Assembly: GCA_022072085.1 (NCBI GenBank)
Contig: JAJVII010000014.1
Span: forward strand, 67,182 to 131,181
Source of the DNA: Phycisphaerae bacterium
Lineage (GTDB): Bacteria > Planctomycetota > Phycisphaerae > JAJVII01
DNA: 64,000 nucleotides
Reading direction: 5' to 3'
Made by a program: the position numbers and the translations under genes. Shown piece after piece: positions 1,859 to 64,000 of the stretch (the stretch's first letter is position 1; every line of letters starts with the position of its first letter). The notes below the pieces were generated by a model, which did not search any database, was not told the origin of the DNA, and was given only the letters and a program-made list of their open reading frames with translations.

Positions 1859-1865
1859 TTCAACC

Positions 1866-3864: not shown

Positions 3865-3866
3865 GA

Positions 3867-3977
3867 GAACGCAGAGTGACAGAGGCGCAGAGGAAAGGCA
3901 GAGTCGGACTTGATTTGTTCTAAGAACAGGACTCCCCTCTGTGAGCCTCTGTCCCGCTCTGTCCCTCTGCGTTGTTC
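3867..3977 (+). repeat. Imperfect inverted repeat (hairpin) in the nuoL-nuoM intergenic region
   Basis: Left arm gaacgcagagtgacagaggcgcagagg... (3867-3903) against the reverse complement of 3932-3977 (gaacaacgcagagggacagagcgggacagagg...). Shares the cgcagag core with the nuoK-L element. Confidence 0.5.
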
Positions 3978-3992
3978 CGGGATTCTGAACGA

Positions 3993-25065: not shown

Positions 25066-25087
25066 CTCATAGTGCGCGTTCTCGATT

Positions 25088-28000: not shown

Positions 28001-31000
28001 CTGGCCGACGCCCGGCGCCGGTCGCAGCCGCTCGTGGATACGGACGTTGGCGAACTCGCCGGTGCGCGACATGCCGACAGCAGCGGCCCGCGGCGGGTCG
28101 GGGTCGGCGGACGGGAACGGCCGAGTCAGCGCAGCCCGCACCAGCCGGTGGGCGAACCGTTGGCCGCCACGGACGGCGACCTCTTCGTTGTCGTCGCCGT
28201 CAGCCAGTTCGCGGGCCAGAACGTCCGCGTCGTCGTCGGCTGCGGGATCCAGGTCGATGATCGCAGGTCGGTAGTTGGGGAACTCGTTGGCCAGCGTGCG
28301 GGCCAGGCCCCACAGCCCGGCCTGGAGGGGTGCGGTCGGCTCCGCCGGTCCGGTCACCGGCTGGGCGCCGCGGGTCGCCAGCCACAGCCGCGGAGCCTGC
28401 TGGCGGGCGGAAAGTTCGCGGGCCAGATCGCAGAGGGCGACGCCGGTAGCCCGAGCCGCGTCATCGACGTCGGCCGGCGCGGCGTCATCGGGATCGGGCA
28501 GGTCGAGGGCCCAGAGATGCACGACGCCGCGCAGCGGCGCCTGCGGATCGGCGGCGGCAGCCTCGATCGCGCGGGCGATGCCGTCGCAGTTGGCGCCGTC
28601 GGCACGCCGGAGCAGCGTGCAGGTGTCGCTCTGCGCCGTCAGCCGCGACGCCAGCGCCTCGGCTGTGCCGCCGGCGTCGGCGAGGATCAGCCAACTGCCG
28701 GACGTGGCTGCGTCGGTCTCGGCGGGCGCAGCTGCGGGCTCATCCGGCGCAGCCGCCTGCGGCGGTGCGCTCGGCCCGCGGGCCAGCAGCACCACGCCGT
28801 CCAGCATCGCGTCGCTGCTGTGCGGCGGGACGTACTCGTGGATGTCGGTGAAGCCCTGTTCCCCCAGCAGCGTCCGCCAGCGGTCCAGCGGCAGGGTCAC
28901 GTGGGCAGGCCGCAGGTCTCGGTCGCGGAACCGCCACCAGCCGTCGAGCATGCCGAAGACAAGATCCGTCCAGCGGAGCGGGGCGGTGAGTTCCGTGAAA
29001 ACGATCACGCCGCCGGGGGCCAGCACCCGCCGGACGTTGGCCAGCGTCGCGCGGAGGTCCGCGGTGGCGTGCAGCACCAGCGGCGCCATCACCACGTCGA
29101 AGCCGCCGGGCGCGAACCCCTGGCTGATCGGGTCGGATTCGATGTCCAGCGTCTGGTAGCGGACGAAGGGGTAGCCGCGGAACCGCTGCTCGGCGTGCGG
29201 GAGGAAATGCCGCGACACGTCGGTGAAGACATAGTCGACCGGGCAGTGCCGGGCGGCCTCGGCGACCGCGGGCAGCACGTAGGCCGTCGTTCCGCCGGTG
29301 CCCGCGCCGATCTCCAGCATCCGCACCGTCCGCCGCGGCGGGGCCGCCCAGAGGATGCGCGCTACCAGGTCCTGGATCAGCAGGTTGCACTGCCGCATGC
29401 CCGGCGAATCCTGGTAGAGCCCCTCGGCGGCTGCGGTGTCGCCGCCGGGGAAGAGCAACTCCAGCGGATCGACTCGGCCGACCAGCACGCCGGCCAGGTT
29501 CCGCCCGCAGCGGTCGATCAGACGCAGGCGGGCCGCGGCGGCCGGGTGGTCGGCGACCAGGGCGCGCCAAACGGCGTCCACGTTGCAGGGCGGTTTCATG
29601 TCCGCCGGCGCGACGCGGCCGTCCGCGCCGAGCGCGACGATGCCCTCGGCTGCCGCGATCTCCAGCAGCCGTCGCCAGAGCTTCGCGTGCCCGTCGGTCA
29701 CCCCCAGCCGCTGCCGCAGCGACTCGATCTCCGCCGGTCCGTCGGCCAAGGCGTCGGCAAACCGCAGGTCGGCCAGCGCGTTTGCGATGTAGCCGGCGCA
29801 CAGCCCGTCAACCTCCGGCATCTCCGGGTCGAAGGGCGTCGCGTTCCACGTCGCCCGCCCGCCCGCGGCGATGTCGGTCAGTCCGCCCAGGCCCGCCAGC
29901 GCCGGCGGCGTCGGATCGCCCGGCAGCGGCGCGGGGAACCAGCGGAACTCGAACAGCAGGTCCTCGACCGTCGTCCCGCGGCTCTCGCCCGCGGGCGCGA
30001 CGGACCGGCAGCGCAGGCCGCGGATTTCCACCAGCCGTCGACCGCCGTCGTCGAGCACCGCCAGCGACGCGGTCAGTTCCTCCGCGCGACGGGCGACGTC
30101 GTACACGTGGCACCAGAGCGGCCGACCATCCAGCGGACCGGTGACGCTCATGCGATCGACGGCCACGGGCAGGTAGCAGGCGCCGGCTTCAGCGGCCGAT
30201 TGGCTGGGCGTCGCGCCAAGGACGGCCTGAAGGCAGGCGTCCAGGATCGCGGGGTGAACGTGGAACGCGCCGGCTGCTGCCGCTGCGGCGATGGGCGGCG
30301 ACGGGACGATGCGGGCCAGCGCCTCGCCGGGCCCGCTGAACAGCCGCTCGATGCCGCGGAACGCCGGGCCGTATTCCAGCCCCTGCTCAGCCAGCCGGGC
30401 GTAGCACTCGTCCGGGCCGATCTCGACAGTGCAGCGGGCGCGAATCGCCGCCAGCTCCGCCTGGCCGGACGCGTCGGCCTCAGCGCTCGCGGCGGGCAGT
30501 CCGGGCAGCGCCTTTCCGTCGGCGTGCAGTTGCCAGGGGTCGCCGCCGCTCTCGGCGCTCGATCGGCCGAACACGCGGAACGTCAGGCCCACCGGATCGA
30601 AGGTGGTGCATACGCTGCGGCCGGTTGCGCCGGGGAACATCGCGCGGTGGAACTGAACGTTCTCGACGACCACGCCCGTGCCGGCGTTGGGCTGCTGGGC
30701 CCGCACCGCGGCCGCCAACTCGAGGTAGGCCGCCGCGGGGAAGACCACCTGGCCCTGCACGCGGTGGTCAGTGAGGAAACCCGTCGCTTCACCGGCGGCT
30801 TCGATCGTCTGCTCCCACGCGGGCAGGGGCAGGCCCATCGGACAGCCGAGCAGGGGGTGGGCTTCGCCGTCGCGGGTCAGCACGCGCAGGCTGCCGGGGC
30901 TCTGGAACCAGTGCCGCGCCCGGTCCCACGGGTGCAGCGGCAGCGGTACCCGGTCGGGCCCGCGGCCGAGCAGGCCCGTCCAATCCAGCGCGACGCCGGC

Positions 31001-33622
31001 GGTGAACAGCCGGCCGGCCGACTCGCGGATGGTCGCGGCCTCCGGCTGGCCCCGCCGCAGCGACGGGACGATCACCGGGCCCGAGCCGTTGCCGTCGCCG
31101 CCGGGGACGCTGCCGGCGATGGCGCCGGCCAGCACCGGATGCGGGCCGATCTCGACGAAGACGCCGCAGCCGTCGTCGGCCATCCGTCGGATTGCCCCGG
31201 CGAACAGCACCGCCTGGCGGACGTTGCGCCACCAGTAGTCGGCGTCGAGGCAGCCGTCCTGCGTGCGGCCCTCATCGACGGTCGAGTAGAAAGGCGTGTG
31301 GCCGTCGGCCTGCCGGATGTCGCCCAGCGACGCCAGCAGCTCGTCGCGCATGCCGTCCATGTGGTCGCTGTGGAACGCGTACTGCACCCGCAGCGGGCGG
31401 CAGAATACTCCGTCGCCGTCCAGCTTCGCCCGCACGGCGTCGACCGCGTCGGCGTCGCCGGTGAGGGTGAGCATCTGCGGCGCGTTGAACGCGCCGATGA
31501 CCACGCGGCCGCGGTGCGGGGCGAGGTATCGCCGGGCCGACGGCTCGTCCAGTCCGACAGCCAGCATCCGCCCGCCGGCGGTGCGGGCGAAGTCCATGCA
31601 GCGTCCGCGGTGGAAGATCACGCGCAGCCCGTCGTCCAGGCTCAGGCGGCCGGCGACGCAGGCGGCCGCTACCTCGCCGGCGCTGTGGCCGACGCAGGCG
31701 TCGGGCGTCACGCCCCACGAATTCCATAGCGCCGCCAGCGCGACCTGGAGCGCGAACAGCACCGGCTGGGCGATCGAGGTCGAGGCCATCCGCGAGTCGG
31801 CTTCGTCGCGAGCGGCCAGTTCCTCAAGCAGCGACCAGGAGGAATGGGCGCTCATCCGCCGGTCGCAGTCGTGGATCACGTCGCGGAAGACGGGCTCAGC
31901 CGCAAGCAGCTCGCGGCCCATCGCCCACCACTGCGGGCCCTGGCCGCTGAAGACGAAGGCGATCCGCCGCCCGTCGCCCTCAATGCCCCTGCCGACGTGC
32001 AGGCCTGGCGCTTTGCCGGCGGTCCCGTAGTCGGCCAGCCGGCGGGCCAGGTCGCTCATCGAGTCGGCGACGACGGCCAGGCGATGGGGCAGGGCGGATC
32101 GCGACCGGGCCGCCGACCGGCAGAGGTCGGCCAGCGGCAGGTCGGCCCACGCGTCGGACGCGGCGCGGCGGGCGTAGCGATCGGCCAGCATCTCCAGCGA
32201 CTTTGGACTGCCGGCGGAAAGGCAGAGCAACTGAGGGGTTGCGTCCCGGCCGCTAGCGGCCGGGCCTGGATGAACAGCGTCGTCCGCGGAACTCAATAGC
32301 AGGTGGGCGTTGGTGCCGCCGAAGCCGAAGGAGTTCACGGCGGCCAGCACGCGGCCGTCCGGCGGCAGCGGCGTCGGGCGGGTCGGCACGCGGATACGCA
32401 GCTCGTCAAAGGGGATATCCGGGTGTGGGCTGTTGAAGTGCAGGCTGGGCGGGATCGTCCGATGGTGAACCGTCAGCGCCGCCTTGATCAGTCCGGCGAT
32501 GCCGGACGCGCTCTCGAGGTGGCCGATGTTCGTCTTGACCGAGCCGAGGTAGAGCGGCCGATCGGGCGAGCGCCCCTCGCGCAGCGCCGCGCCCAGCGCC
32601 TTGACCTCGATGGGATCGCCCAGCGACGTGCCCGTGCCGTGGGCCTCGAAGTAGGCGACGTCGGCCGGGGCGATCCCGGCGTCGGCGAGGACGCGGCGGA
32701 TCAGTTCCTCCTGGGCGGCGCCGCTGGGGGCGGTGATGCCGGGCGTGCGGCCGTCCTGGTTGACTCCGCCGGCCAGAATGACCGCGTAGATGCGGTCGCC
32801 GTCGCGGCGGGCGTCGGCCAGCCGCTTGAGCAGCACCATGCCCGCGCCTTCGCCGCGGCCGAAGCCGTCAGCCGACGCGTCGAACGACTTGCACCGCCCG
32901 TCAGGGCTGAGCATGCCCAGCCGGCAGAAGCCGATGTAGGGCTCAGGGCTGAGGATGAGGTTCACGCCGCCGGCCAGGGCCGCGTCGCACCGGCCGTCGC
33001 GGAGGCTGCGGCAGGCGAGGTCGGCCGCCACCAGCGCCGACGAGCAGGCGGTGTCGACTGCGACGCTGGGCCCGCCGAGGTTCAGGGCATGCGAGACGCG
33101 GTTGGCGACGATGCTGGTTGCGGTGCCGGTTCCCGAGTGGGCGTCGATGAGGTCGGACTCGGCCATGGTTGCCTGGGTCTTGGCGTAGTCGACGTTGGAG
33201 ACGCCGGCGAAGACGCCGACGGCGCTGCGGCGGCGGCGGTCGACGGGCAGGCCCGCGTCCTCCATCGCCTCCCAGCAGACCTCCAGCAGCAGCCGCTGTT
33301 GGGGGTCCATGCGTTCGGCTTCGCGGGCGGAGATGCCGAAGAAGGCCGCATCGAACCGGTCGACGTTCTCGACGAAGCCGCCGTTGCGGGTGTAGATCCG
33401 CCCGGGCTGCCTGGGGTCTGGATGGAAGAAGCGGTCGAGATCCCACCGCCCGGGGGGGATCGGCCCGATCGCGTCCACGCCGTCGTGCAGCAGACGCCAG
33501 AAGGCGTCGGCGTCGTCGGCGCGCCCGGGGAACCGGCAGCCGATCCCGACGATGGCGATCGGCTCGGGGGTCCGGAGCGCGGGCGCGTCGTGTGGGGCCG
33601 GCGACGAAGCGAATGTGGGCAT
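25088..33622 (-). CDS. Type I polyketide synthase, single highly reducing module: KS-AT-DH-cMT-ER-KR-ACP-TE
   Basis: 2844 aa. KS (DTACSSALVAADLACRSL, HGTGT), AT (GQGPQWWAMG, GHSAGEVAAACVAG), DH (HRVQGQVVFPAA), SAM methyltransferase (LEIGAGTGGTT), ER (IHSAAGGVGLAAVQIARSVGAEV), KR (VVTGGFGGFGLLLAGWLVERG), ACP (LGLDSLMAVELGNWI), thioesterase (GWSIGGVFAIKVAQAL). Confidence 0.9.
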   Translation of the reverse strand: MPTFASSPAPHDAPALRTPEPIAIVGIGCRFPGRADDADAFWRLLHDGVDAIGPIPPGRWDLDRFFHPDPRQPGRIYTRNGGFVENVDRFDAAFFGISAREAERMDPQQRLLLEVCWEAMEDAGLPVDRRRRSAVGVFAGVSNVDYAKTQATMAESDLIDAHSGTGTATSIVANRVSHALNLGGPSVAVDTACSSALVAADLACRSLRDGRCDAALAGGVNLILSPEPYIGFCRLGMLSPDGRCKSFDASADGFGRGEGAGMVLLKRLADARRDGDRIYAVILAGGVNQDGRTPGITAPSGAAQEELIRRVLADAGIAPADVAYFEAHGTGTSLGDPIEVKALGAALREGRSPDRPLYLGSVKTNIGHLESASGIAGLIKAALTVHHRTIPPSLHFNSPHPDIPFDELRIRVPTRPTPLPPDGRVLAAVNSFGFGGTNAHLLLSSADDAVHPGPAASGRDATPQLLCLSAGSPKSLEMLADRYARRAASDAWADLPLADLCRSAARSRSALPHRLAVVADSMSDLARRLADYGTAGKAPGLHVGRGIEGDGRRIAFVFSGQGPQWWAMGRELLAAEPVFRDVIHDCDRRMSAHSSWSLLEELAARDEADSRMASTSIAQPVLFALQVALAALWNSWGVTPDACVGHSAGEVAAACVAGRLSLDDGLRVIFHRGRCMDFARTAGGRMLAVGLDEPSARRYLAPHRGRVVIGAFNAPQMLTLTGDADAVDAVRAKLDGDGVFCRPLRVQYAFHSDHMDGMRDELLASLGDIRQADGHTPFYSTVDEGRTQDGCLDADYWWRNVRQAVLFAGAIRRMADDGCGVFVEIGPHPVLAGAIAGSVPGGDGNGSGPVIVPSLRRGQPEAATIRESAGRLFTAGVALDWTGLLGRGPDRVPLPLHPWDRARHWFQSPGSLRVLTRDGEAHPLLGCPMGLPLPAWEQTIEAAGEATGFLTDHRVQGQVVFPAAAYLELAAAVRAQQPNAGTGVVVENVQFHRAMFPGATGRSVCTTFDPVGLTFRVFGRSSAESGGDPWQLHADGKALPGLPAASAEADASGQAELAAIRARCTVEIGPDECYARLAEQGLEYGPAFRGIERLFSGPGEALARIVPSPPIAAAAAAGAFHVHPAILDACLQAVLGATPSQSAAEAGACYLPVAVDRMSVTGPLDGRPLWCHVYDVARRAEELTASLAVLDDGGRRLVEIRGLRCRSVAPAGESRGTTVEDLLFEFRWFPAPLPGDPTPPALAGLGGLTDIAAGGRATWNATPFDPEMPEVDGLCAGYIANALADLRFADALADGPAEIESLRQRLGVTDGHAKLWRRLLEIAAAEGIVALGADGRVAPADMKPPCNVDAVWRALVADHPAAAARLRLIDRCGRNLAGVLVGRVDPLELLFPGGDTAAAEGLYQDSPGMRQCNLLIQDLVARILWAAPPRRTVRMLEIGAGTGGTTAYVLPAVAEAARHCPVDYVFTDVSRHFLPHAEQRFRGYPFVRYQTLDIESDPISQGFAPGGFDVVMAPLVLHATADLRATLANVRRVLAPGGVIVFTELTAPLRWTDLVFGMLDGWWRFRDRDLRPAHVTLPLDRWRTLLGEQGFTDIHEYVPPHSSDAMLDGVVLLARGPSAPPQAAAPDEPAAAPAETDAATSGSWLILADAGGTAEALASRLTAQSDTCTLLRRADGANCDGIARAIEAAAADPQAPLRGVVHLWALDLPDPDDAAPADVDDAARATGVALCDLARELSARQQAPRLWLATRGAQPVTGPAEPTAPLQAGLWGLARTLANEFPNYRPAIIDLDPAADDDADVLARELADGDDNEEVAVRGGQRFAHRLVRAALTRPFPSADPDPPRAAAVGMSRTGEFANVRIHERLRPAPGVGQVEVEVHAAGINFSDVMKVLGIYPGLAPGELGLGIECAGVVRRVGPQVAGVRVGDRVMAAGPGCFATHVLLPAHALMPAPDDIAMVAAATMPVTFMTAHHALIDKAGLGRGEKVLIHSAAGGVGLAAVQIARSVGAEVLATAGTPEKREFLRRLGVRHVLDSRTLGWAADVMDATCGTGVDVVLNSLAGEAIAKGLAVLAPFGRFVEIGKRDIYADRPIGLAPFRKNIAVFSIDLDLAMRTRADLVRRLNAAVADRIAAGDYRPLPYRPMTMASASAALATLSRGSHIGKLVLTLRDHRLNAVVGSQSHPQLAPGDACVVTGGFGGFGLLLAGWLVERGTRHVVLMGRKGPPDRRSRDQIEAMRARGATVVEVLGDVTKPDDVARALAAAEAPGATLRGVFHAAMVLDDTLMADLDEATFLKVYRPKVVGAMLLHRMTADRRLDHFVLFSSISTVVGTAGQANYTTANAVLDSLAARRRARGLPGLSINWGYLAEVGTVAAAPEVAERFKSFGLAGFTPTQALDTLGRCMSADATHLTVCNMDWARYGARMREKGLGATKFEFVCPADSDSGPATSGESEELRRAVLAADQADRPALLLAAMRTQIAGVLGQSAEQLDIDRSLTDLGLDSLMAVELGNWIESSLGVHLQTMEVMSGPSVSQLSRLILGRLSPESAATERSAAAPAAADSPAVVTLRSHGERTPLFCIHAGGGGVAVYRALADALTPGRTVYGIDCRAPDGGRTDIEHATLDALADDYAARIRAMQPASPCCLTGWSIGGVFAIKVAQALERSGRAVGFVGLIDTSRPSAALREGIARNSADAIADLLNAGSADNSMTAQAVREVVELDESLRSHPRAERAARLVQWYTDRRMLPAGMPADLMSRRLELLEHHGDLAASPGVIRLAAPVFQWRAADPLAGGGGDRDGEWSDASSAAVRVATLPGGHFTLLRPPHVTALAAGITAAFETVGLR

Positions 33623-33852
33623 GGGCGATTCCGTGGCTGGGCGGCTCCCCGCGCACCGGACGATGCGAACGGCTCAGTCGCGGTCGGATCCGCGGCTGAG
33701 GCTGGCACATAAGCGCAGCTCACCGTCGCTGTCGGGGCGCTGACGACCGGGACGTCAGGGAACGGGTTCTTCAGGCCACGTTATAACCGCCCGCGGCGGG
33801 TCGAATCAACACTTGCGATGAAGGGGTTGCGACGGACGGCCGAGCGCGTCGA

Positions 33853-53805: not shown

Positions 53806-56800
53806 TCACTTGCCCAGTTTCTTGCCGTAATTGGCGATCATGTCGCGCAGGTCCAGGGCCAACTCGGGAATTTCCTTGCCGCCGGTGAGCAGACGAATCT
53901 GCTCGTTGGCCAACGCGGGGTTGGCCGGGGCCCGCTCCAGGGCCATCGCGATCTGCTTCCACTGATAGGAGTAGGCCTTGAATCGCGCCCCGGCCTGCCC
54001 GGACTGCCGGGCCACCTCGTCGATCAGCGGCAGCAGCTTGGTGTTGATGTCCTTGGACATGCCGCGTGCGGCCTCGACGACGCGGCTGACCGGCAGCAGG
54101 TTCGCGTCGTGCATCATTTCGGCGGCCTTGTAGGCGGTGACGTCGCCGGCCTGGGCGGCCTTGCCCGCCTGGAGTTGGCCGATGTTCACGCCGCGCATCT
54201 CGGGCGTGCCCAGCCAGGCCAGGTCGGTGTAGATCTCCGGGTGGGCGCTGGTGGTCAGCGTCTCGAAGGATCGCTTGGCGCTTCGACCGGTGACGGCGTG
54301 ATAGGCGGCCTCCCAGGCGGCCTGGGCGTCGGCCTGAAGCTGCGCGGCGTTGACGCGAAGGCTGCCGCGCGTGAAGGGAATCTCGGTCAGCGCGCGGCTC
54401 TGCGGGCTGGTCGGGTCGAGGCAGCGCCGCATCAGGCCGATGTCGTAGTCCATGCCGACCGTGCCGGCGCTGGAGGCGTTGCGGAACTCCTGCATGACCC
54501 ACTGGTCGGCGCCGGCGTAGCCGCGATCGCTCATCACCCGGCGGAACTGCGCCTGCACCCGCTCGTGCACCTGGGCCATGCGCTGGTTGTAGTCGGCGAT
54601 CAGCTCGGCGAACTTCGGGTCGTGCGAGGCCGACTTGAGCACCAGCTTGCCCTCGTAGCTGGAGTGCAGCAGCGTCGCCTTGTCGCGCAGCGCCTGCTCC
54701 ATCGCCTGGATTTCCGGGCCGCTGGCGCCGAACTCCATCGCCCGCTGGTATTCCTTGTAGGCTCGCCGGTAGTCCTCCACGAGGACTTTGCTGTCCTCCA
54801 TCGCGATGCGGTAGCGGGCCTGCTCGAACGCCTTGGCGACGTCGGGCTTGGCGTCCGGCGGCGGGTGGCCCCCGAAGAGCCTGCCGATGCCGTACTCCAG
54901 GCCCTTGACCGCCAGGAAGGTCGTCACGCCGCGCTCCAGGGCCCCGGCCCAGCCCTTCTGCCCGCTCAGCCAGCCGCCCTTGGTGTAGCCCTCCATCGCC
55001 TCGGCCGCCGCCATGCCGGCCGCGTTCGTCCACATCAGCCCGTTCTTGGTTCCCTCGTAGAGCCGGTTGCCCACGCCGCCCTCGGCGCCGGCATAGCCCA
55101 GGCAGCCCTCGAACGCGGGCATCACCCAGCCGCTGGTCCCCAGACTGACGGCGAACATCTCCGCCTCGGCCCAGGTCTTGGCCACTTGTGCATAGCGCAG
55201 GTTCTGTTCGGCGATCAGCGCCTTCTCGGTCTCGCGGGCCGAGACGCCCTCCCAGTGACCGGCCACCTGCTCGAACACGGCGTGGGCGATCTTCTGCATC
55301 CGGTCCGCGTCGCCCCAGGTTTTCGCGTCGGCGGTCTGCCGCGCGACGAACGCCGCCAGTTGCTCGCGCTGTTCGGGCGGGGCCAGGCGGATCACCCGCT
55401 GCGTGCCCTCGGCGTAGCGTGCGATCCGCGTGTCCGGGTCCATCCGGTCGCGCACCTGCTGCACGAACCGCGCGGCGTACCACTCGTCCACCGGCGTGCG
55501 CGTGTGAACGACTTCGCCGGTCTGGAGTTCGCGGATGCGGTCCATCTCGGCCAGCCGCGTGTGCTCGGCGTGCATCAACGTGTGGACCAGTTGCTCGCGC
55601 GTGTCGGGGTCCTTGGCCGCCGCCAGTTCGGCGCGCCACTTGGCCGCGTTGGTCTCGGCGATCTTGATATTCGCCTCGTGGAACTCGATCATCTCGGCGC
55701 GAGCCTGGGCCAGCTCGGCCGCCTTGGCCGGGTCCGGCGGCGGACCGGACTGCGCCGCCTCCTGCCTGTAGCGGTCCGGCTCGTCCGACAGGTCCATCGG
55801 CGCGACCGTCCCGCCGTTCGGGTCGAAGGTGAACTCCCAACCAAGCTGGATTTCCATCGGGTTCTCGGCGGCGTCCACCTCGCCGGCCTTTCGGCCGGGC
55901 AGGGGGGCTTCGCCGTTCATCCTCTGCCGCACGGTCCAAGTCGCCTTCAGCTTCCAGCCCTCGCCGGGCGTCCGCTTGTTCCACTCGGGGGGGTACTTGC
56001 CGTGGGCCCGCTCGTAGGGAATCCTCCACCAGCCCGGGTCGTAGCGGAACTGGATCTGCATCGCCCCGGCCAGCCTGGCCGTGCGGTCGAGGTAGACGTT
56101 GCGCTCGATGGCCATGTTGCCGTAGCCGCCGTAGCCGCCCACCGGCTTGCCGTCGGGGGCGTATAGCACCGCGGCAAAGCTGTGTTCGAACACGCGCCCG
56201 CCGGTGAACGGATCGCGCTTCTTGTCGTCGCTGCCGGCGAACCCGCGCTTGTCGCGCTGATCGATGTCCTCGACGATGAACGGGATCAGCATGAACGTCG
56301 ACTTGGAGACCCGCGGGTCCTCGACGTAGGGGAACACCGTCGGCGGCTGGGCCCAGACGACGCGCAGGTTGCTCCGCACGAATCCGTTGCGGATGCCGCC
56401 GCTGACCACTTCCTGGTGCGTGTTGGGGTCGGTGTAGGAACTGCGGTAATCGTCGCGGAACTGGAGCAGCAGCTCGCTGACGAAGCTCGTCCCGTCCTTC
56501 TTGAAGTTCCACGACCAGGTGTCGGCCCAGCGGCCCTTTTCGTCGGCCAGGAACCGCCCGACCTCGGGCTTGCGGATCCACTTCAACTCGCGCCCGGTGA
56601 GCACCCAGGCCGGTCCCGTGTCGCCGCCGGGCGCGAACGGCCGAACCGACTCCTCGAACTCCCGCCGCCGCTTCGCCCGGCACTGGCCGGCGTCGGGCGG
56701 ATCGCCCATGGCCCGGATCTTCTCGGCTGCGTCTGCCATCCGGCCCTGGAGCCACGTCAGTTGCCGCTGCCGCGCCCAGGCGACGGCCATCGCCTCGTCC

Positions 56801-57195
56801 GCGCCGACGGCGTCGCCGACGGTCAGATACGCGTTCGCCTCGCGGTAGGCGGCGTCGAACTGAGCCGCGACGATCCCCGCCTGCCCGCGGGCGGCCAGAA
56901 ACCGCTCGACATGCGGCAACAGGGCGTTGAGATACATTGCGAGCATGGGGCAGGGGTAGCTGTAGGCCGGCGCCCAGGCTTTGTCGATCGCTGCCGCCTG
57001 CTCCGCCGTCAACGGGGCGTAGACCAGCTTGACGGCCTGGTGGGCGGTGCTGACGGCCTCGCGATACCGCGCCGGGTCGAGGGACGTGACGTCGGGCCAG
57101 GCCCGCCCGGTCGCCGGTTCGTCGGCGGCCCGGCCCTGCGCGCAGGCCGACAGAAGAATTGCCACAGCGATGCAGCCGAAGACGCCTCGCTTCAT
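53806..57195 (-). CDS. Large hypothetical lipoprotein (1129 aa), function unknown
   Basis: ATG at 57195 gives lipoprotein signal MKRGVFGCIAVAILLSACAQG. Largely alpha-helical/coiled-coil sequence with no recognised catalytic motif. 22 bp upstream of the ankyrin lipoprotein on the same strand (probable operon). Confidence 0.75.
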   Translation of the reverse strand: MKRGVFGCIAVAILLSACAQGRAADEPATGRAWPDVTSLDPARYREAVSTAHQAVKLVYAPLTAEQAAAIDKAWAPAYSYPCPMLAMYLNALLPHVERFLAARGQAGIVAAQFDAAYREANAYLTVGDAVGADEAMAVAWARQRQLTWLQGRMADAAEKIRAMGDPPDAGQCRAKRRREFEESVRPFAPGGDTGPAWVLTGRELKWIRKPEVGRFLADEKGRWADTWSWNFKKDGTSFVSELLLQFRDDYRSSYTDPNTHQEVVSGGIRNGFVRSNLRVVWAQPPTVFPYVEDPRVSKSTFMLIPFIVEDIDQRDKRGFAGSDDKKRDPFTGGRVFEHSFAAVLYAPDGKPVGGYGGYGNMAIERNVYLDRTARLAGAMQIQFRYDPGWWRIPYERAHGKYPPEWNKRTPGEGWKLKATWTVRQRMNGEAPLPGRKAGEVDAAENPMEIQLGWEFTFDPNGGTVAPMDLSDEPDRYRQEAAQSGPPPDPAKAAELAQARAEMIEFHEANIKIAETNAAKWRAELAAAKDPDTREQLVHTLMHAEHTRLAEMDRIRELQTGEVVHTRTPVDEWYAARFVQQVRDRMDPDTRIARYAEGTQRVIRLAPPEQREQLAAFVARQTADAKTWGDADRMQKIAHAVFEQVAGHWEGVSARETEKALIAEQNLRYAQVAKTWAEAEMFAVSLGTSGWVMPAFEGCLGYAGAEGGVGNRLYEGTKNGLMWTNAAGMAAAEAMEGYTKGGWLSGQKGWAGALERGVTTFLAVKGLEYGIGRLFGGHPPPDAKPDVAKAFEQARYRIAMEDSKVLVEDYRRAYKEYQRAMEFGASGPEIQAMEQALRDKATLLHSSYEGKLVLKSASHDPKFAELIADYNQRMAQVHERVQAQFRRVMSDRGYAGADQWVMQEFRNASSAGTVGMDYDIGLMRRCLDPTSPQSRALTEIPFTRGSLRVNAAQLQADAQAAWEAAYHAVTGRSAKRSFETLTTSAHPEIYTDLAWLGTPEMRGVNIGQLQAGKAAQAGDVTAYKAAEMMHDANLLPVSRVVEAARGMSKDINTKLLPLIDEVARQSGQAGARFKAYSYQWKQIAMALERAPANPALANEQIRLLTGGKEIPELALDLRDMIANYGKKLGK

Positions 57196-57321
57196 GGTGG
57201 CCCTCCCCGGATGTCTGTTGTGCGAGTCTTGGCAAAGAAAGGCGCCCGGCCGACCGGTCCGGCGGGGGACAACCTGATTATCCATCCGGGCTGGCCGCCG
57301 TCAAGCGCCGCTGCGCGGGCG

Positions 57322-57350
57322 TTGGCGGATGACGCGGGAAAGTGTAGAAT
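57322..57350 (+). promoter_or_regulatory. Sigma-70-like promoter candidate upstream of top6B (TTGGCG-N17-TAGAAT)
   Basis: -35-like TTGGCG (57322-57327), 17-nt spacer, -10-like TAGAAT (57345-57350) with TG two nt upstream. About 65 nt upstream of the top6B ATG. Confidence 0.4.
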
Positions 57351-57416
57351 AGCACGCAGCGGACGGGCAGGGACGCTCGCCGCAATCTCCGGGTTCCGTT
57401 TAGGCCGCCCATCCCC

Positions 57417-59525
57417 ATGAGCAAGAAAGCCAGTCCCGCCCGCAAGGGCAAGTCCAAGTCAAAGTCGCCGCGCAAGGCTCTGCAAGCCGAGTCGGCCCCG
57501 CCGCCCAAGCCGCCCGCGCCGCCGCGCGCCCGCAAGTCGGCTGCCCCCGAGACAGCCGAGTCGATGGCTGTCCAACAGAAGGAGATCGCGGTCAGCGAGT
57601 TCTTCGCCAAGAACCGCCACCTGCTCGGGTTCGACAACCCGCGCAAGGCCCTGCTGACCTGCGTGAAGGAGGCCGTCGACAACTCGCTGGACGCCTGCGA
57701 GGAGGGCGGCATCCTGCCGGAAATCTGGGTCATCATCGAGCCGGCCAACGGCAACGGGTCGGCCGCCGGCGGCGAGGCGAAGAAGACCGCCGACGCCCCG
57801 CTGACCGGCCTGGCGTCGGGCAAGGGCGGGGCGAAGGAGGAGACCCAGCCCTCGCTGCTGGAGACCGTGCATCCCGAGATCGCCCAGTCGGTCTCGACCT
57901 CGCTGGCGAACGTCACGCGCTTCCGCGTCACTGTCCGCGACAACGGGCCGGGCATCGTCAAGGCGCAGATCCCCAACATCTTCGGCCGACTGCTCTACGG
58001 TTCCAAGTTCCACCGGCTGCGGATGAGCCGCGGGCAGCAGGGCATCGGCATCTCGGCGGCCGGCATGTACGGCCTGCTCACAACCGGCCAGTCTGTCGAG
58101 ATCATCTCGCGCACGGGCCGCAAGAAGCCGGCCCACCGCTTCGAGCTTCAGATGGACACGCGGAAGAACCGCGCCGAGATCATCAAGGACCAGGAGTTGG
58201 CGAACTGGCCGAGGTTTACCGTCAGTGATGCCGACGCCGCGCCGGCTGAGCCCGAGGAAGTCGAACACGGCACCGAGGTGCGGATCGTGCTGGAGGCCCG
58301 GTTCCAGCGCGGCCGTGCGTCCGTGGACGAATACATGGAGCAGACCGCGATCGCCAACCCGCACGCGGAGATTCACTACATCGCCCCCGATGGCGCCCGG
58401 CGGGATTTCCCGCGCGAGGTGAACGAGGTCCCCGCCAGCCCGGCGGCGATCAAGCCGCACCCCTACGGCGTCGAACTGGGCGTTCTGATCCGCATGCTCA
58501 AGGAAACGAAGCACAAGCACCTGGGCGGGTTCCTCCAGAAGGAGTTCTCGCGCGTCTCGCTCAAGGTCGCCCAGGAAATCTGCGCCAAGGCCGGCCTGAC
58601 CACGCTGACCTGGTGCTCGCAGGTCGTCCGCGACCAGGCCGACCGGCTGCACGCGGCCATCCAAGGGACGAAGATCATGGCCCCGCCGACCAACTGCCTG
58701 GTGCCGATCGGACCGCAGCAGATCCTCAAGGGGCTGCTCAAAGAGATCAAGGCCGAGTTCTGCTGCGCCGCGACGCGCGACCCGGCCGTCTATCGCGGCA
58801 ACCCGTTCCAGATCGAGGTCGGCCTGGCCTACGGCGGGCAACTCCCCGCCGACGACAGCGCCCGCGTGATCCGCTTCGCCAACCGCGTGCCGCTCCTCTA
58901 TCAGCCATCGGCCTGCGCGATCACCAAGAGCGTCGTGGACGTAGGCTGGCGGAACTACGCCCTCAGCCAGCCGCGCAACAGCGGGCCCGAGGGGCCGCTG
59001 GTCATCTTCGTTCACATGGCCAGCGTCTGGGTTCCGTTCACCAGCGAGTCCAAGGAGGCCGTCGCCGGATACGACGAGATCGCCAGGGAGATCAAGCTGG
59101 CGCTCCAGGAGTGCGGCCGCAAGCTCAGCCTCTACATACGCCGACGCCAGCACGCCGCCCGCGAGGGCCAGCGGCGGCACGTTTTCGAGCGGTACATCGG
59201 CGAGGTCGTCAACGCCTGCGGCAAGATGATCCGTGTCAACCGCAAGCAGCTCTACGCCGAACTCCAGGCCGTCGCCAAACGCCGCACCGCCAAGGCCGAC
59301 GAGCGGTTCGACGAGAACGGCAACCCGATCCGCCCCGGCCGCGACGAGTTGGCTGCCGATGCGAACGTCGTGGTAATCGAGTCCAACGCTCCCGAGGCCG
59401 ACGCCGATGCCGTCGTGCCGGCAGCCGTCCCCGACGCCGACAAGCCCAAGGCCGGCCGAAAGGGCGCAGCCGCGAAGAAGTCCCGCGCCGCCCGGGGCCT
59501 GTTCGACGAGAACGAGGGCCAATGA
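57417..59525 (+). CDS. top6B: DNA topoisomerase VI subunit B (GHKL/Bergerat ATPase) with Lys-rich SPKK-like N- and C-terminal tails
   Basis: Bergerat-fold N-box FFAKNRHLLGFDNPRKALLTCVKEAVDNSLDACEE, G-rich lid VRDNGPGIV...GQQGIGISAAGMYG, transducer region. N-tail MSKKASPARKGKSKSKSPRKA...; C-tail ...DKPKAGRKGAAAKKSRAARG. Upstream TTGGCG-N17-TAGAAT. Confidence 0.85.
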   Translation: MSKKASPARKGKSKSKSPRKALQAESAPPPKPPAPPRARKSAAPETAESMAVQQKEIAVSEFFAKNRHLLGFDNPRKALLTCVKEAVDNSLDACEEGGILPEIWVIIEPANGNGSAAGGEAKKTADAPLTGLASGKGGAKEETQPSLLETVHPEIAQSVSTSLANVTRFRVTVRDNGPGIVKAQIPNIFGRLLYGSKFHRLRMSRGQQGIGISAAGMYGLLTTGQSVEIISRTGRKKPAHRFELQMDTRKNRAEIIKDQELANWPRFTVSDADAAPAEPEEVEHGTEVRIVLEARFQRGRASVDEYMEQTAIANPHAEIHYIAPDGARRDFPREVNEVPASPAAIKPHPYGVELGVLIRMLKETKHKHLGGFLQKEFSRVSLKVAQEICAKAGLTTLTWCSQVVRDQADRLHAAIQGTKIMAPPTNCLVPIGPQQILKGLLKEIKAEFCCAATRDPAVYRGNPFQIEVGLAYGGQLPADDSARVIRFANRVPLLYQPSACAITKSVVDVGWRNYALSQPRNSGPEGPLVIFVHMASVWVPFTSESKEAVAGYDEIAREIKLALQECGRKLSLYIRRRQHAAREGQRRHVFERYIGEVVNACGKMIRVNRKQLYAELQAVAKRRTAKADERFDENGNPIRPGRDELAADANVVVIESNAPEADADAVVPAAVPDADKPKAGRKGAAAKKSRAARGLFDENEGQ

Positions 59526-59662
59526 GCCCCCGTTTTTCGAGCCTATCCAGCGGCTTCCGCCGCCGGCTCGCGGAGACCGGGGGACGCCGCCCGGTGAAGC
59601 GGTCGGCAAACCGGCGCCCACGCAACGGGCGATCGAACGTTGTTTAGCGAAGGAATCGTTTC

Positions 59663-60772
59663 ATGGCCAAGCAGACTCGCAAGCGACACGCCGCGACGGG
59701 CAAGAAACTCCAGGGGCTGGCCCAATCCGTCGTCAAGGCCGCCCACGCCAAGCGCGACCCGGGCATCGTCATCCCCACGCGGGCCCTGTCCAACTCGGTC
59801 TACGACGCCAAGCGCAAGATCATCACGATGGGCAAGGGCAGCCAGACGCGGACCTTCTTCAACTTGGGCATGGCCCGCAAGTTCATGCAGACGATGCTCA
59901 TCGCCTCCGGCTGCAAGGAACTCAACGACCAGGGCAAGACAACCAGTATCCGCGACCTGTTCTACCACTGCAAGCACACCATCGAGGGCACGCGCGAGAA
60001 CACATTCGACGAGCAGTCCGAGAGCGACCCGATCATCGAGGACCTCGAAGTCGCCATCGGCAGCCTGCGCGAGGAACTGGGCCTGTTCGCCGAGAACAAG
60101 GGCTCGATGGTCGGGCCGATGACCATCGTCGACGCCGGCGACACGATCGACCTTCGGCGGATGGGCAGCGGCGGCTGGTCCGTGCCGTCGATCGTTGAAT
60201 CCGACGTCATCCAGTTCCGCAAGCACGAAGCCCGGTACGTCCTGCTGATCGAGAAGGCCGCCATCTGGAAACGGTTCAACGAGGACCGCTTCTGGGACAA
60301 GCACAAGTGCGTCATCCTGCACGGCGGAGGCCAGCCGCCGCGCGGCGTCCGCCGCCTGCTCTTCCGCCTGCACAACGAACTCAAGCTGCCGGTCTACGTC
60401 CTGACCGACAACGACCCCTGGGGCTACTACATCTACAGCGTCGTCAAGCAGGGCTCGATCAACCTGGCGTTCGAGAGCGAGCGGATGGCCGTCCCGCGGG
60501 CACGGTTCGTCGGCATGAGCAGCTTCGACGTCGGGCGATTCGACATCGACTCCAGCGTGACGATCGCCCTGAAGGACGAGGACCGCAACCGGGCCCGCGA
60601 GATATTGAAATACCCCTGGTTCGCCGACAAGCGGGAGTGGAAGCGCGAGATCGAACAGATGCTCAAGACCGGCGTGAAGCTGGAACTGGAAGCCCTCTCC
60701 AGCAAGGACTTCTCCTTCATCACCCAGACCTACCTGCCGCGCAAGCTCAAGGACAAGCAGTGGCTGGACTGA
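59663..60772 (+). CDS. top6A: DNA topoisomerase VI subunit A (Spo11/Top6A-like: winged-helix + Toprim)
   Basis: Candidate catalytic Tyr in IRDLFYHCKH. Toprim acidic residues (VLLIEKAAIW; YVLTDNDPWGYYIY, the DxD motif). 369 aa. 138 bp downstream of top6B on the same strand. Confidence 0.85.
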   Translation: MAKQTRKRHAATGKKLQGLAQSVVKAAHAKRDPGIVIPTRALSNSVYDAKRKIITMGKGSQTRTFFNLGMARKFMQTMLIASGCKELNDQGKTTSIRDLFYHCKHTIEGTRENTFDEQSESDPIIEDLEVAIGSLREELGLFAENKGSMVGPMTIVDAGDTIDLRRMGSGGWSVPSIVESDVIQFRKHEARYVLLIEKAAIWKRFNEDRFWDKHKCVILHGGGQPPRGVRRLLFRLHNELKLPVYVLTDNDPWGYYIYSVVKQGSINLAFESERMAVPRARFVGMSSFDVGRFDIDSSVTIALKDEDRNRAREILKYPWFADKREWKREIEQMLKTGVKLELEALSSKDFSFITQTYLPRKLKDKQWLD

Positions 60773-60878
60773 CCGGCCGCCGCCTCCGCCGGCCTCGCTG
60801 CTCATTGACGGCGGGGCGGACGCGGATTATCATTCATCCCCCAGACCGGTCGTTGTCGGACTCCTGGCGCTGCCCAAC

Positions 60879-61997
60879 ATGACCTTACTGCGTCGCAGTC
60901 TGATCGGCGCTATCGCACTGACCGGGCTGGTCGTTCTTGCCCCGCCAGCCCGGCCTGCGTCGGGTGATCCCGTTCCCGCAACCGCCCCCGACGTTGCCCC
61001 GCCGCTGCCGGCTCCGATGCCGTCGGCCACCACCCAGCCGGCCAGCACCGCGGACCTCGAAGCCGAGATTCAGTCGATCCTCGTCCGCGTCAGCCTGCTG
61101 GAAAACGACAAGTCGCTCCAGCCGCGCACCCGCAAGGTCCTCACCGACCGCTACCAGCAGGCCGTCGAGCAACTCCGCCACGCGGTGGACATGACCCTTC
61201 AGGCCGGCGGCTATCGCCGCGTCGCCATCTCCGCCCCGCGGCTGCTCAAGGCATTGCAGGCCGAGCTGGCCTGCCCGACGCCGCGGCCGGATGCGGTCGC
61301 AGCCGAAGGGCTGACCTCCACGCAGTTGTCGGCGCGGTGGGATCTGGCCAAGGCCGACCTGACCACCCGCCAGAAGCAGATCGAGGAACTGGACACGGAG
61401 ATGAAGGACCGCGAGACGCGGCGGGTTGCCATCCCTCCGCAGATCGCCGACCTCACCCAGCGGCTCCAGGACGTCCGCCGCGAGTTGACCAGTCTGCCCA
61501 GCGACAGCCAGTCAGTCTACATCCCGCCGCGACAGTCGCTGCTGTCGGCCCAGGTGCGGGCCCTGTCGGCCGAGATCAACGCGTTGCAGCGCGAGCTGGC
61601 CAGCTACGAGGCGACCGACGAACTGCTGGCCGCCCGGCGCGACCTTGCCGTCCGACAGGTCGCCAACGCCGAGCGCGAGGAGGCCCTCTGGGCCGCCCAG
61701 GTCCGCGCCCAGGACGCCCGCGAAGCCGAGGATTTCAGCCGCCGGATGCAGGCCCAGTTCAAGGAGTTGGCCGCCGCCTACCCGGCCGTCCGCGAACTGG
61801 CCGAGCACAACGCCGAACTCGCCGCCCGCCGCATCGGGCCCGATGGTCTGCTGGCCAGCCTGGCCGACGCCGGGCACGAGTTGGCCGGCCTCCAGAAGAA
61901 GCTCACTCGCCTCCAGGAGGACTTCGAGCGCGTGCGGGCCGACATCACCGCCGGCGGCCTGCACGACGCGATGGGCCAGATGCTGCTGGCGCAGTAG
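60879..61997 (+). CDS. MscK/KefA-like mechanosensitive channel, N-terminal periplasmic coiled-coil portion ending at an in-frame TAG
   Basis: Signal peptide MTLLRRSLIGAIALTGLVVLAPPA followed by long coiled-coil heptads. TAG at 61995-61997. The same frame continues open directly downstream into the TM and MscS domains. Confidence 0.7.
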   Translation: MTLLRRSLIGAIALTGLVVLAPPARPASGDPVPATAPDVAPPLPAPMPSATTQPASTADLEAEIQSILVRVSLLENDKSLQPRTRKVLTDRYQQAVEQLRHAVDMTLQAGGYRRVAISAPRLLKALQAELACPTPRPDAVAAEGLTSTQLSARWDLAKADLTTRQKQIEELDTEMKDRETRRVAIPPQIADLTQRLQDVRRELTSLPSDSQSVYIPPRQSLLSAQVRALSAEINALQRELASYEATDELLAARRDLAVRQVANAEREEALWAAQVRAQDAREAEDFSRRMQAQFKELAAAYPAVRELAEHNAELAARRIGPDGLLASLADAGHELAGLQKKLTRLQEDFERVRADITAGGLHDAMGQMLLAQ

Positions 61998-64000
61998 GCG
62001 GCCATCGACGAACTCCGCGACGGACTGGGCGACCCGGTCGCGCTTCAGTCCCGGGCCGCCGCCGCGCAGGGCCGGTTGCTGGACTACCGCCGCGACCTGG
62101 ACACCCTGGCCAACCCCTTCGACCGCGCCGGCGAGATGATCGAATCGCTTTCGCCCGCCCCCGATGACGCCGACCGCCCGCGCATCCGCTCGCAGATCGA
62201 GTCGCTGTTGATCGCCCGCCGCGAGGTCCTCCGCCACCTCGTCGACGAGACCCGGCGATACCTGGCCGCCACGACCGCGCTGATTGCGACCGGCCGCGAT
62301 CTGGCCGCCGCCATCGACCGCTTCAGCGTCTTCATCGACCAGCGCATCCTGTGGGTCCGCAACATGCCGCCGCTTCGCCGCGGCGAGCTGCTGTGGGCGG
62401 CGCGCGGCGCAGCCGAGCTGGTTCGAGCCGATGGCTGGCGGCGGTTGCCGGGCCAACTGGCCTACGACGCCGTCGAGAGCCCGCTGATCTGGCTGCCTCT
62501 GCTGCTGCTGGCCGCCGCCATGATCGCCACGCGCGGCCGCGCCCGGCGCGGCATCCGCAGTCTTGGCCGACCCGGCCCGCGCGACGCCGCCGGACTGACG
62601 ACGATGGCCGCGGCGCCTCGCGTGCTGGCCCTCACGCTCTGGCGAGATCTGCCCGGGCCGCTGTTGCTGGCGCTGGCCGGCTGGCGGCTGGGCGAGATCG
62701 CCGCCGGCCGCGGACCGGCCGCCTCGCTTGGCGCCGCCCTGTGGACCTGCGCTTGGGTCCTGCTCGGCCTGCTGTTCCTGCACGACCTCTGTGTGCCGGG
62801 CGGGCTGGGCCGGCGACATTTCCGGTGGAACCGCCGTCGCCTGGCCTCGATCCGCGCCGGCAGCGTCTGGTTGATGGCCGTCGGCCTGCCGCTGCTGGCG
62901 CTGGTGCTGGTCATGCGGTTCTCCGGTTTCGCAGGACGGCAGGTTGCCATGCCGCAGGCGTCGCTGGCCCGTCTGGCCTTCATCGTCGGCGCCCTGTTCC
63001 TGGCCGTCATGCTCCACCGCCTCTTCCGGGCCGACGAGCGCGGCGGACTGCTTTCCCGCTCGCGGGCCGGTCGGCTGCGGTTGCTCTGGCATGTGCTGGC
63101 CGTCGCCGCCCCTCCGGCCCTGGCGCTGCTGTCGGCCTGCGGATACCTCCACACCAGCCTGAAGTTGGCCGGCCTGCTGCTGGCCTCGCTCGGCCTGCTG
63201 CTGGGCGTCGCGGTGGCCCAGGGCATCCTGACGCACTGGTTGACGTTGATGCGGGCCCGGCTGTCGGCCGACCGTTCGCTCCAGCCGGTCACGCCGATCG
63301 CTCCCGCCACCGTCGTCGCCCTGGAGGAGGCGGACCGCGAAGCCCTCCGCGTCCTGGGCGACCAGGGCAGCCACCTCATCCGCGCGGTGCTGGTCGTCAT
63401 CTTCCTGGTGGGCCTGTGGCTGATCTGGCGCTCCGCCCTGCCGGCGCTGTCGATGCTCAACCGCTTCACGCTCTGGACCGTCAGCGGGCCCGACGGGGCG
63501 GTCCCGGTCACGCTGGCCAAGGGTCTGCTCTCGCTGCTGACGGTGGCGGCCATGGTCGTCGCCATCCGCAACGTCCCAGGCCTGCTGGAGATCGTCCTGC
63601 TCCGCCCGGTCGGCCTGGGTCCGGACATCCGCTTCGCCGTCCGCGCCCTCTGCCGCTACCTGCTGGCCATCGTCGCCCTGATCATCGCCTTTTCGCTGCT
63701 GGGCATCGGCTGGTCCAAGGTGCAGTGGCTGGTCGCGGCGATCACGGTCGGCCTGGGCTTCGGCCTCCAGGAGATATTCGCCAACTTTGTCTCGGGCATC
63801 ATCGTGCTGTTCGAGCGCCCGATGCGCGTCGGCGACGTGATCACCGTCGGCGACACGACCGGCCGCGTCACCCGCATCCAGATGCGCTCGACCACCATCA
63901 CCGACTGGGACTGCAAGGAGCTGATCGTCCCCAACAAGGAGTTCATCACCGGGCGGCTGGTGAACTGGACGCTCTCGGACCGTACGCTGCGGATTACGAT
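61998..64000 (+). CDS. MscS-family channel portion (TM region plus MscS beta-domain), same frame as the upstream fragment; 3' end outside window; start undefined
   Basis: Same reading frame as 60879-61997 with no stop to the window end. Multiple TM helices, then MscS signature ...ITVGLGFGLQEIFANFVSGIIVLFERPMRVGDVITVGDTTGRVTRIQMRSTTITDWD. First in-frame ATG after the TAG is at 62136. Confidence 0.7.

Follow-up and report, generated by a model that had tools for sequence, protein, structure and literature searches.

Bacterial topoisomerase VI and the locus in the window

In 2009, topoisomerase VI (topo VI) was known from three bacterial genomes, and Forterre and Gadelle remarked that topo VI and topoisomerase IV (topo IV) 'interact with different specific partners' and seldom substitute for one another (PMC2647321). 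The 2024 study by Allen & Maxwell lists 17 bacterial families with topo VI, including Anaerohalosphaeraceae and Sedimentisphaeraceae of the Phycisphaerae and three families of the Pirellulales (PMC11302465). According to this study, gyrase is present in every bacterium with topo VI, topo IV is absent from those that do not belong to Pseudomonadota or Terrabacteria, and topo VI is proposed to be the missing decatenase. Bacterial Top6B subunits are described as lacking the immunoglobulin-like (Ig-like) C-terminal domain, and that of Pirellula as having an additional helical bundle next to its transducer; neither 'tail' nor 'disordered' occurs as a word in the text (PMC11302465). Here we describe a topo VI gene pair, top6B and top6A, located at positions 57322-60772 of a 64-kb stretch of DNA from a Phycisphaerae bacterium (the whole of which is referred to below as the window). 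The locus very probably encodes the native chromosomal topo VI of a Tepidisphaerales-like member of the Phycisphaerae, and is an ordinary member of the published clade with tails typical of that clade. Earlier publications already cover the enzyme, its occurrence in both Phycisphaerae and Pirellulales, and the likelihood that it substitutes for topo IV; the one fresh point, a modest one, appears to be a short conserved LF motif in the tails of bacterial Top6B.

The interval contains two co-directional open reading frames (ORFs), preceded by a candidate promoter and separated by a short spacer:

57322-57350, plus strand: candidate sigma-70-like promoter (TTGGCG and TAGAAT separated by 17 nt), 67 nt before the start of top6B
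57417-59525, plus strand: top6B, topo VI subunit B, 702 aa, with GHKL ATPase, H2TH and transducer domains
59526-59662, plus strand: intergenic spacer between top6B and top6A, 137 nt, with AAGGA 9 nt before the top6A ATG
59663-60772, plus strand: top6A, topo VI subunit A, 369 aa, with 5Y-CAP/winged-helix (WHD) and Toprim domains

An earlier note on this stretch had reported a Top6B-Top6A pair here, with its own promoter-like element and unrelated genes on both sides, and these observations hold. Both ORFs match Pfam and NCBIfam models, the latter above cut-off, and the TTGGCG-17-TAGAAT element lies exactly at 57322-57350, with 9 of 12 consensus matches; a promoter scan of 57100-61000 gave 3 sites against 0.2 expected. 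The scan found no terminator-like site between the two genes, and the features of the spacer are consistent with co-transcription of top6B and top6A. An Rfam search of the whole window gave no match to any RNA family. The pair is already annotated and correctly named in NCBI, where nr entries 100% identical to the two proteins carry consecutive accessions (MCG3178727.1 for Top6B, MCG3178728.1 for Top6A) and the names 'Type 2 DNA topoisomerase 6 subunit B' and 'subunit A', from a contig of 183,896 bp in a Phycisphaerae metagenome-assembled genome (MAG).

Family size, phylogeny and nativeness

Topo VI was described in the earlier note as only sporadic in bacteria, a view that is now outdated. 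A word-index homolog search with Top6B gave at least 8000 candidates, and an exhaustive search of 50%-identity representatives gave 2992 clusters at E ≤ 0.001 and 737 at E ≤ 1e-30. In a scan of one genome per GTDB species, Top6B relatives were found in at least 561 genomes. Among the matches listed, the nearest relatives (62-74% identity) belong to Phycisphaerae, Tepidisphaerales and Tepidisphaeraceae MAGs, and relatives at about 50% identity belong to Planctomycetales, Elusimicrobia, Rokubacteria/Methylomirabilota, Binatia, Manganitrophus and others. When a Binatia-type Top6B served as the query of a further search, all matches were close relatives (83-100% identity), reflecting strong conservation within that clade, and no independent lineages were added.

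In a neighbour-joining tree of 529 trimmed columns, the window Top6B falls inside a Tepidisphaerales/Phycisphaerae group within a large Planctomycetota clade. This clade is sister to one comprising Elusimicrobia, Rokubacteria and Binatia, and both stand apart from unlabelled, presumably archaeal, representatives, with a branching order that agrees with taxonomy. The picture of the pair as unusual is essentially undone, because the clade in which it nests is large and published, and basic tails are general in bacterial Top6B. The gene order is also shared: 51 of 80 related loci have top6A after top6B in the same orientation. The remaining 29 (L010-L047 and others) have no top6A within 6 kb downstream of top6B; some of these are contig ends. 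Many Planctomycetales and some Phycisphaerae are among the loci without a nearby top6A, and the subunit genes are therefore unlinked there.

The third-position GC content (GC3) of top6B and top6A (0.91 and 0.93, respectively) is similar to that of neighbouring genes, which include housekeeping genes beside the pair, and no mobile-element genes are present in the window. Together with the tree and the gene order, GC3 and the neighbours indicate that the pair is native and not recently imported. Recent horizontal transfer or a mobile-element origin was considered and rejected, based on GC3, gene context and the congruence of the tree with taxonomy. The five flanking proteins have no match in the 80 related loci at E ≤ 1e-8, in line with the unrelated flanks described earlier.

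Some of the more distant relatives have unusual architectures. Ten representatives (P0125, P0126, P0132, P0143, P0152, P0156, P0163, P0188, P0191 and P0217) are 1000-1570 aa long, many Top6B relatives are 300-900 aa overlong with the Top6B match broken into 3-4 stretches, and two (P0157 and P0158) start with intein-like sequence. These overlong relatives look like intein-bearing proteins, probably archaeal.

Catalytic and structural features of the two subunits

Top6A matches the NCBIfam model NF003333 with 563 bits (cut-off 465), residues 7-369 covering positions 6-367 of 367 in the model. Its Pfam matches comprise TP6A_N, the all-beta domain, and the Top6A/Spo11 Toprim domain (PF21180, E = 5.9e-60), and its closest solved structure is Saccharolobus shibatae Top6A (2zbk_A, E = 1e-77). 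With motif definitions for both subunits taken from PMC7671362 and PMC5922973, the 5Y-CAP domain contains R97 and the catalytic Y101 in RDLFY, the Toprim domain contains the metal-binding residues E197 and D249-N-D251, and a T2BI-type box (general form R/K-x-E-x-x-A/S), KLELEAL, starts at residue 339.

The NCBIfam equivalogs best matching Top6A (NF003333, NF003336 and others) bear the title 'DNA topoisomerase IV subunit A', and because of these titles many NCBI records of Top6A homologs (P0274, P0281, P0293, P0316 and others) are misnamed as topo IV subunit A. In genome surveys, the wrong names could mask topo VI or create a false topo IV.

Top6B matches the NCBIfam equivalog NF003218 with 660 bits (cut-off 274) over residues 46-633. 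Its Pfam matches comprise HATPase_c and Topo-VIb_trans (PF09239, residues 423-584, E = 2.6e-59), and its closest solved structure is Methanosarcina mazei Top6B (2q2e_B, E = 3e-132). The segments of Top6B discussed below are as follows:

57417-57551, plus strand: N-terminal tail, residues 1-45, net charge +11, rich in K/R/P/A/S, predicted disordered
57732-57914, plus strand: low-complexity GHKL insertion, residues 106-166, separating the N-box and G1-box strands
58683-59228, plus strand: transducer domain, with switch lysine K546 and stalk helix 553-604
59229-59381, plus strand: conserved post-transducer extension, residues 605-655, with helix 609-623, FDENGNPI and an NVVVIE strand
59382-59522, plus strand: C-terminal tail, residues 656-702, with an acidic half, a basic patch at 672-692 (+5) and GLFDENEGQ
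59499-59504, plus strand: LF short linear motif, L695-F696, in the context AARGLFDENEGQ, a degenerate form resembling the clamp-binding motifs QxxLF and QxxLxF

The motifs of the GHKL/Bergerat ATPase fold are all in place, including the N-box residues E85 and N89 in EAVDNSLDA, the G1 box D175-G179 (DNGPGI at 175), the G2 box G206-G211 (GQQGIG at 206, with GxxGxG intact) and the switch lysine K546 in TSESK. The columns of E85, N89, D175, G177, G179 and K546 are invariant across 120 sequences. Two DNA-sensing motifs are also present, WRNY at 511-514 (equivalent to the WKxY motif) and RGR at 297-299 (equivalent to the KGRR loop). The H2TH region, which Top6B-like meiotic partners lack, lies within an unbroken alignment to M. 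mazei Top6B over query residues 170-592, and is modelled by AlphaFold2 (AF2) as helices at 354-417 with a predicted local distance difference test score (pLDDT) >90. Thus the earlier expectation of conserved motifs in both subunits is borne out, with all the catalytic residues found.

The AF2 model of Top6B, obtained with 120 homologs, has a mean pLDDT of 84 and a predicted TM score of 0.82. Foldseek places M. mazei Top6B as the best match, followed by S. shibatae Top6B, with 560-572 columns aligned, and superposition on the two structures gives target-normalised TM scores of 0.68-0.88. The post-transducer extension has pLDDT values of 74-87, and probably corresponds to the 'helical bundle' of Pirellula (PMC11302465). 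The GHKL insertion has pLDDT <50 at residues 118-136 and short helices at 147-164; query residues 109-170 align with residues 68-75 of M. mazei Top6B, which has 6 residues in this place. The length of the insertion has a median of 49 aa (range 12-83) in Phycisphaerae-type proteins and is 7 aa in Planctomycetia-type proteins, and comparison of the homologous sequences marks it as lineage-specific.

Disordered tails of Top6B

The N-terminal tail contains 13 K/R (9 K and 4 R), 10 P, 9 A and 7 S, and is followed by a conserved N-terminal strap, ETAES...EFF. Its pLDDT is <50 at residues 1-25 and 51-73 up to residue 45. The C-terminal tail has a net charge of 0, with pLDDT <50 and hence predicted disorder at residues 667-702. 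The earlier description of lysine-rich tails rich in K/R/P/A/S therefore stands for the N-terminal tail, with its charge of +11, and fails for the C-terminal tail, which is not lysine-rich overall.

Such tails are typical of the clade and of bacterial Top6B, and not special to the window gene. Among the Phycisphaerae-type homologs 92% have a net positive N-terminal tail, as do 100% of the Planctomycetia-type homologs. At the other end, the median charge of the final 30 residues is +7 to +10 in Top6B of the Planctomycetia type, the Binatia type and other phyla, which often ends in KRRKR or KKKKK; in the Phycisphaerae type this C-terminal stretch is slightly acidic, its median being -3 (+3 in the window protein). 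The homolog tails do not align, and range in length from 13 to 139 aa. Among 99 examined 50%-identity representatives, 51 are essentially without an N-terminal tail; these are unlabelled, and many are probably archaeal. Basic disordered tails are thus a general, hitherto undescribed trait of bacterial Top6B.

The two tails had been likened to histone H1 and AT-hook tails, with the strings KSKSPRK and SPARK given as SPKK-like motifs. Both strings are present in the N-terminal tail, at residues 14-20 and 6-10, respectively. The likeness does not survive closer inspection: the N-terminal tail contains one exact [ST]P[KR][KR] match (SPRK, 17-20), a match also occurs in 12% of shuffled N-terminal tails, only 6 of 109 homolog N-terminal tails have one, and no GRP core of an AT-hook is present in Top6B. 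The histone H1/SPKK/AT-hook analogy was rejected as one of composition only, which fails regular-expression, shuffle and homolog-count tests.

The extreme C-terminus shows a separate regularity. Of 93 Phycisphaerae-type Top6B (P0001-P0093), 73 end in -AA (e.g. ...LFESDAA and ...LFGEEAA), resembling the end of the ssrA degradation tag. This ending is lost in the window protein (...DENEGQ) and its nearest relatives.

The LF motif and its resemblance to clamp-binding motifs

The tail peptide of the window Top6B, KKSRAARGLFDENEGQ, contains the LF dipeptide, which recurs in 100 of the 118 distinct C-terminal tails of the closest homologs (5.0 expected from shuffles). The longer form QxxLF occurs in 32 of the same 118 tails against 0.2 expected, and in the homolog tails the motif is followed by acidic residues. 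Binatia-type C-terminal tails contain Q[ML][TS]LxF[ED] (QMTLGF) within a lysine-rich stretch in 117 of 120 cases. The N-terminal tails of Planctomycetales and Phycisphaerae contain QLSLF (twice), QLQLSF, QLSLAF, QLSLPF, QLQLPF, QLALDF, QLALSF and QMTLDF, and QLSLGL is also among the exact consensus forms in relatives.

In several lineages these sequences match the beta-clamp-binding consensus, Q-phi-x-[L/M]-[F/L] or Q-phi-x-[L/M]-x-[F/L], which is usually located in disordered termini with mostly acidic flanks (PMC11139829). LF alone is able to bind clamp subsite I, and the motif of the delta subunit, AMSLF, lacks the Gln; the clamp partners covered in this 2024 review include no topoisomerase (PMC11139829). 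A strict pattern (Q-[LMIVA]-x-[LM]-[FL] or Q-[LMIVA]-x-[LM]-x-[FL]) matches 14 of 77 N-terminal and 14 of 77 C-terminal tails of the locus proteins, and 27 of the 77 proteins overall. The background in 536 other ORFs of the same loci is 2.4% for the first 70 residues and 4.1% for the last 70, giving Fisher p values of 4e-7 and 3e-5, which come from related sequences and non-independent trials. The tails examined from Rokubacteria, Elusimicrobia and Manganitrophus have basic ends only and no clamp-like motif, and the motif is therefore not universal. A literature search for topo VI or topo IV together with a clamp-binding motif or the PIP motif of PCNA gave no direct report.

In the window protein, the copy is ARGLF (692-696) followed by DENE, with pLDDT <50. 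The LF, the disorder and the acidic flank fit the clamp-binding consensus; the Gln and the aliphatic residue do not, and the N-terminal tail contains no clamp-like motif. For these reasons clamp binding, a lead supported by the sequence pattern, is weakest for the window protein itself. That bacterial topo VI is tethered to the replisome through genuine beta-clamp-binding motifs in the Top6B tails, with ARGLF as a degenerate copy, is a tentative proposal, worth pursuing without being probable.

A further tail element, KP[KR][LM]R[LM][VI]NGKLVPV, is present 5-7 residues before the terminal LF in three proteins of an unlabelled Top6B lineage (P0124, P0176 and P0259), and may represent a second docking motif.

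Proposed mechanism and its significance

The two genes would form a unit, top6B followed by top6A, probably read from the candidate promoter at 57322-57350. By analogy with the family, and consistent with the adjacency of the genes and the intact interface regions, the products are expected to assemble as an A2B2 heterotetramer, the form in which topo VI relaxes and decatenates DNA with ATP through breaks staggered by two nucleotides. Top6B would dimerise on ATP via its GHKL domains and capture the T-segment, Top6A would cleave the G-segment with Tyr101, using Mg2+ held by the Toprim residues E197, D249 and D251, and the transducer with switch Lys546 would couple ATP turnover to strand passage. 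The residues present and the family thus point to an ATP-gated decatenase and relaxase activity. Because the published topo VI bacteria of the Planctomycetes-Verrucomicrobia-Chlamydiae (PVC) group have gyrase and no topo IV, the pair is most likely the dedicated decatenase and positive-supercoil relaxase of the cell, a stand-in role for topo IV that is drawn from the literature and not from the window genome.

Archaeal topo VI senses DNA via the KGRR loop, the stalk/WKxY and the H2TH domain (PMC5922973). In the bacterial enzyme, the N-terminal tail (+11) would extend from the N-terminal strap, at the entrance to the ATP gate, and the C-terminal tail would leave the foot of the stalk beside the Top6A/G-segment surface. 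From their position and charge, the tails probably act as non-specific DNA-capturing arms, and the LF motif in the C-terminal tail probably docks a partner; the strongest candidate is the beta sliding clamp. Clamp motifs beside basic DNA-binding stretches might recruit the decatenase to clamps behind the fork, where precatenanes would be removed. If true, no type II topoisomerase before it would have had a canonical clamp-binding motif. The case would also illustrate how, once transferred, an archaeal enzyme became connected to bacterial replication, and help explain the remark of Forterre and Gadelle on the different specific partners of topo VI and topo IV.

Several points weigh against parts of this account. 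Gyrase and topo IV genes are both absent from the 64-kb window, and the literature surveyed contains no biochemistry of any bacterial topo VI. The top6B promoter candidate was identified only by its match to the consensus. For the tails, DNA binding is deduced solely from their charge, and such a role fits the N-terminal tail better than the C-terminal tail, because the Phycisphaerae-type C-terminus is net negative. Finally, the window copy of the LF motif lacks the consensus Gln and aliphatic residue.

Alternative explanations

A different identity for the pair, as Topo VIII or another type IIB enzyme borne by a mobile element, or as a Spo11-like breaker with a degenerate B subunit, has some basis in the occurrence of Topo VIII in Planctomycetes (3 sequences including Fimbriiglobus; PMC7671362), but is so improbable that it can be given next to no weight. 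The two subunits are separate and full-length, Top6A covers nearly the entire model and keeps the N-terminal, Top6B-binding part that Topo VIII and Mini-A lack, and its T2BI box is KLELEAL, not RVELNAM. In addition, neither the G2 box GxxGxG nor the switch Lys is disrupted, and the surroundings are free of mobile-element genes. Topo VIII or Spo11-like identity was rejected based on this domain coverage and these motifs. The idea suggested by the earlier note, of an unusual, sporadically acquired topo VI whose Top6B gained H1/SPKK- or AT-hook-like tails as a special adaptation, draws on the very basic N-terminal tail (+11 over 45 aa, containing SPRK and SPAR) and on the three bacteria from which topo VI was known in 2009 (PMC2647321). 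It is already largely refuted, and we consider it very unlikely: SPKK is at chance level, rare among homologs and without a GRP core, the basic tails are general, relatives are found in at least 561 species genomes, the clade is published, and the codon composition is native.

Two further explanations concern the tails of what remains, in our preferred reading, a native clade-typical topo VI. The tails might be functionless low-complexity drift, an Ala/Pro/Gly/Arg filler of a 70% GC genome that is tolerated at the termini and in a surface loop. The unaligned tails of variable length (13-139 aa, with 12-83 aa for the GHKL insertion), the dominance of Ala and Pro, and the absence of structure in the AF2 model of the tails agree with this, but lysine, with its AT-rich codons, is still the main basic residue of the N-terminal tail (9 K and 4 R), 92-100% of homologs retain a charge of the same sign, and LF is kept in 100 of 118 tails where 5 would be expected, making drift an unlikely explanation. 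Alternatively, the LF motif may not be a clamp site, and may instead dock on Top6A or Top6B as a form of autoregulation, bind another partner (SMC/ScpAB, FtsK or RNA polymerase), or form part of a C-terminal degron. The consensus Gln is present in 34% of Planctomycetota copies and missing from most, the -AA ending of 73 of the 93 Phycisphaerae-type proteins is like that of the ssrA tag, and no paper was found that links a type II topoisomerase to a clamp-binding motif. On the other hand, AF2 does not dock the tail on Top6B (pLDDT <50), the full consensus is found elsewhere (QMTLGF in 117 of 120, plus QLSLF, QLSLPF and QLSLGL), and the acidic flanks match clamp-binding motifs as described (PMC11139829). 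A non-clamp function is accordingly possible while leaning towards the unlikely.

Other genes in the window

The neighbours of the pair in the window include nuo genes, a type I polyketide synthase, glycosidases and transporters. Divergent from top6B is an ORF of 1159 aa (53806-57285, minus strand; GC3 0.92), which matches no Pfam family and has no counterpart among the 80 related loci. The first ATG of this ORF is overlapped by a minus-strand promoter-like site (57304-57277), and the actual start may therefore lie farther downstream. The gene immediately after top6A encodes a mechanosensitive-channel-type protein with an MscS_porin domain (60879-63998, plus strand), with its own promoter-like site at 60805-60833. 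Further away are a partial nuo (NADH dehydrogenase) operon (2-7495, plus strand), a protein of 1732 aa with Secretin_N repeats (7948-13146, plus strand), and a single-module, fully reducing type I polyketide synthase of 2861 aa (25088-33673, minus strand) with the domain order KS-AT-DH-MT-ER-KR-ACP-TE, adjoined by an MMPL-family transporter (22867-25092, minus strand).

Comparison with known systems

The window pair shares type IIB catalytic modules with Topo VIII and Mini-A (Takahashi et al. 2019, PMC7671362). However, Topo VIII is usually a single polypeptide (otherwise split within the transducer) borne by a mobile element, lacks the N-terminal 5Y-CAP part and has an RVELNAM box, none of which is true of the window pair. 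The N-terminal tail of Top6B recalls SPKK/H1 tails in being rich in K/P/A/S and in having one SPRK tetrapeptide, but differs from these and from AT-hooks in lacking repeated SPKK units and GRP, and in that the motif is unconserved and at chance frequency. Clamp-binding proteins (Pol II QLGLF, Pol IV QLVLGL, Hda QLSLPL, delta AMSLF) resemble the Top6B relatives in having an LF-type core in a disordered tail with acidic residues after it. The window ARGLF departs from their consensus in the Gln and the aliphatic residue, and the delta AMSLF is likewise without the Gln.

Archaeal topo VI is another close system. Top6B has 40% identity to that of M. mazei (2Q2E, 9O0G) in structural alignment, and the N-box, G1, G2, switch Lys, WKxY, KGRR loop, RxxFY, E and DxD motifs are shared with the archaeal enzymes, including that of S. 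shibatae (2ZBK). By contrast with M. mazei, the window Top6B lacks the Ig-like C-terminal domain, and the bacterial tails stand where this domain would be. Compared with archaeal Top6B, it adds a 45-aa basic N-terminal tail, a 61-aa insertion between N-box and G1, a 50-aa folded post-stalk extension and a 47-aa disordered C-terminal tail.

Also among the closest described systems are the PVC topo VI of Pirellula staleyi, Thermogutta terrifontis, Lacipirellula, Sedimentisphaera and Anaerohalosphaera (PMC11302465), which represent the same enzyme in the same phylum and class. They share with the window pair the two subunits, the retained GHKL, H2TH and transducer domains, the lack of the Ig-like C-terminal domain and the extra helical element after the transducer. 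The Tepidisphaerales-like lineage of the window lies outside the 17 families listed, and the disordered tails, the GHKL insertion and the LF motif, which are not mentioned in that study, are all seen in the window Top6B.

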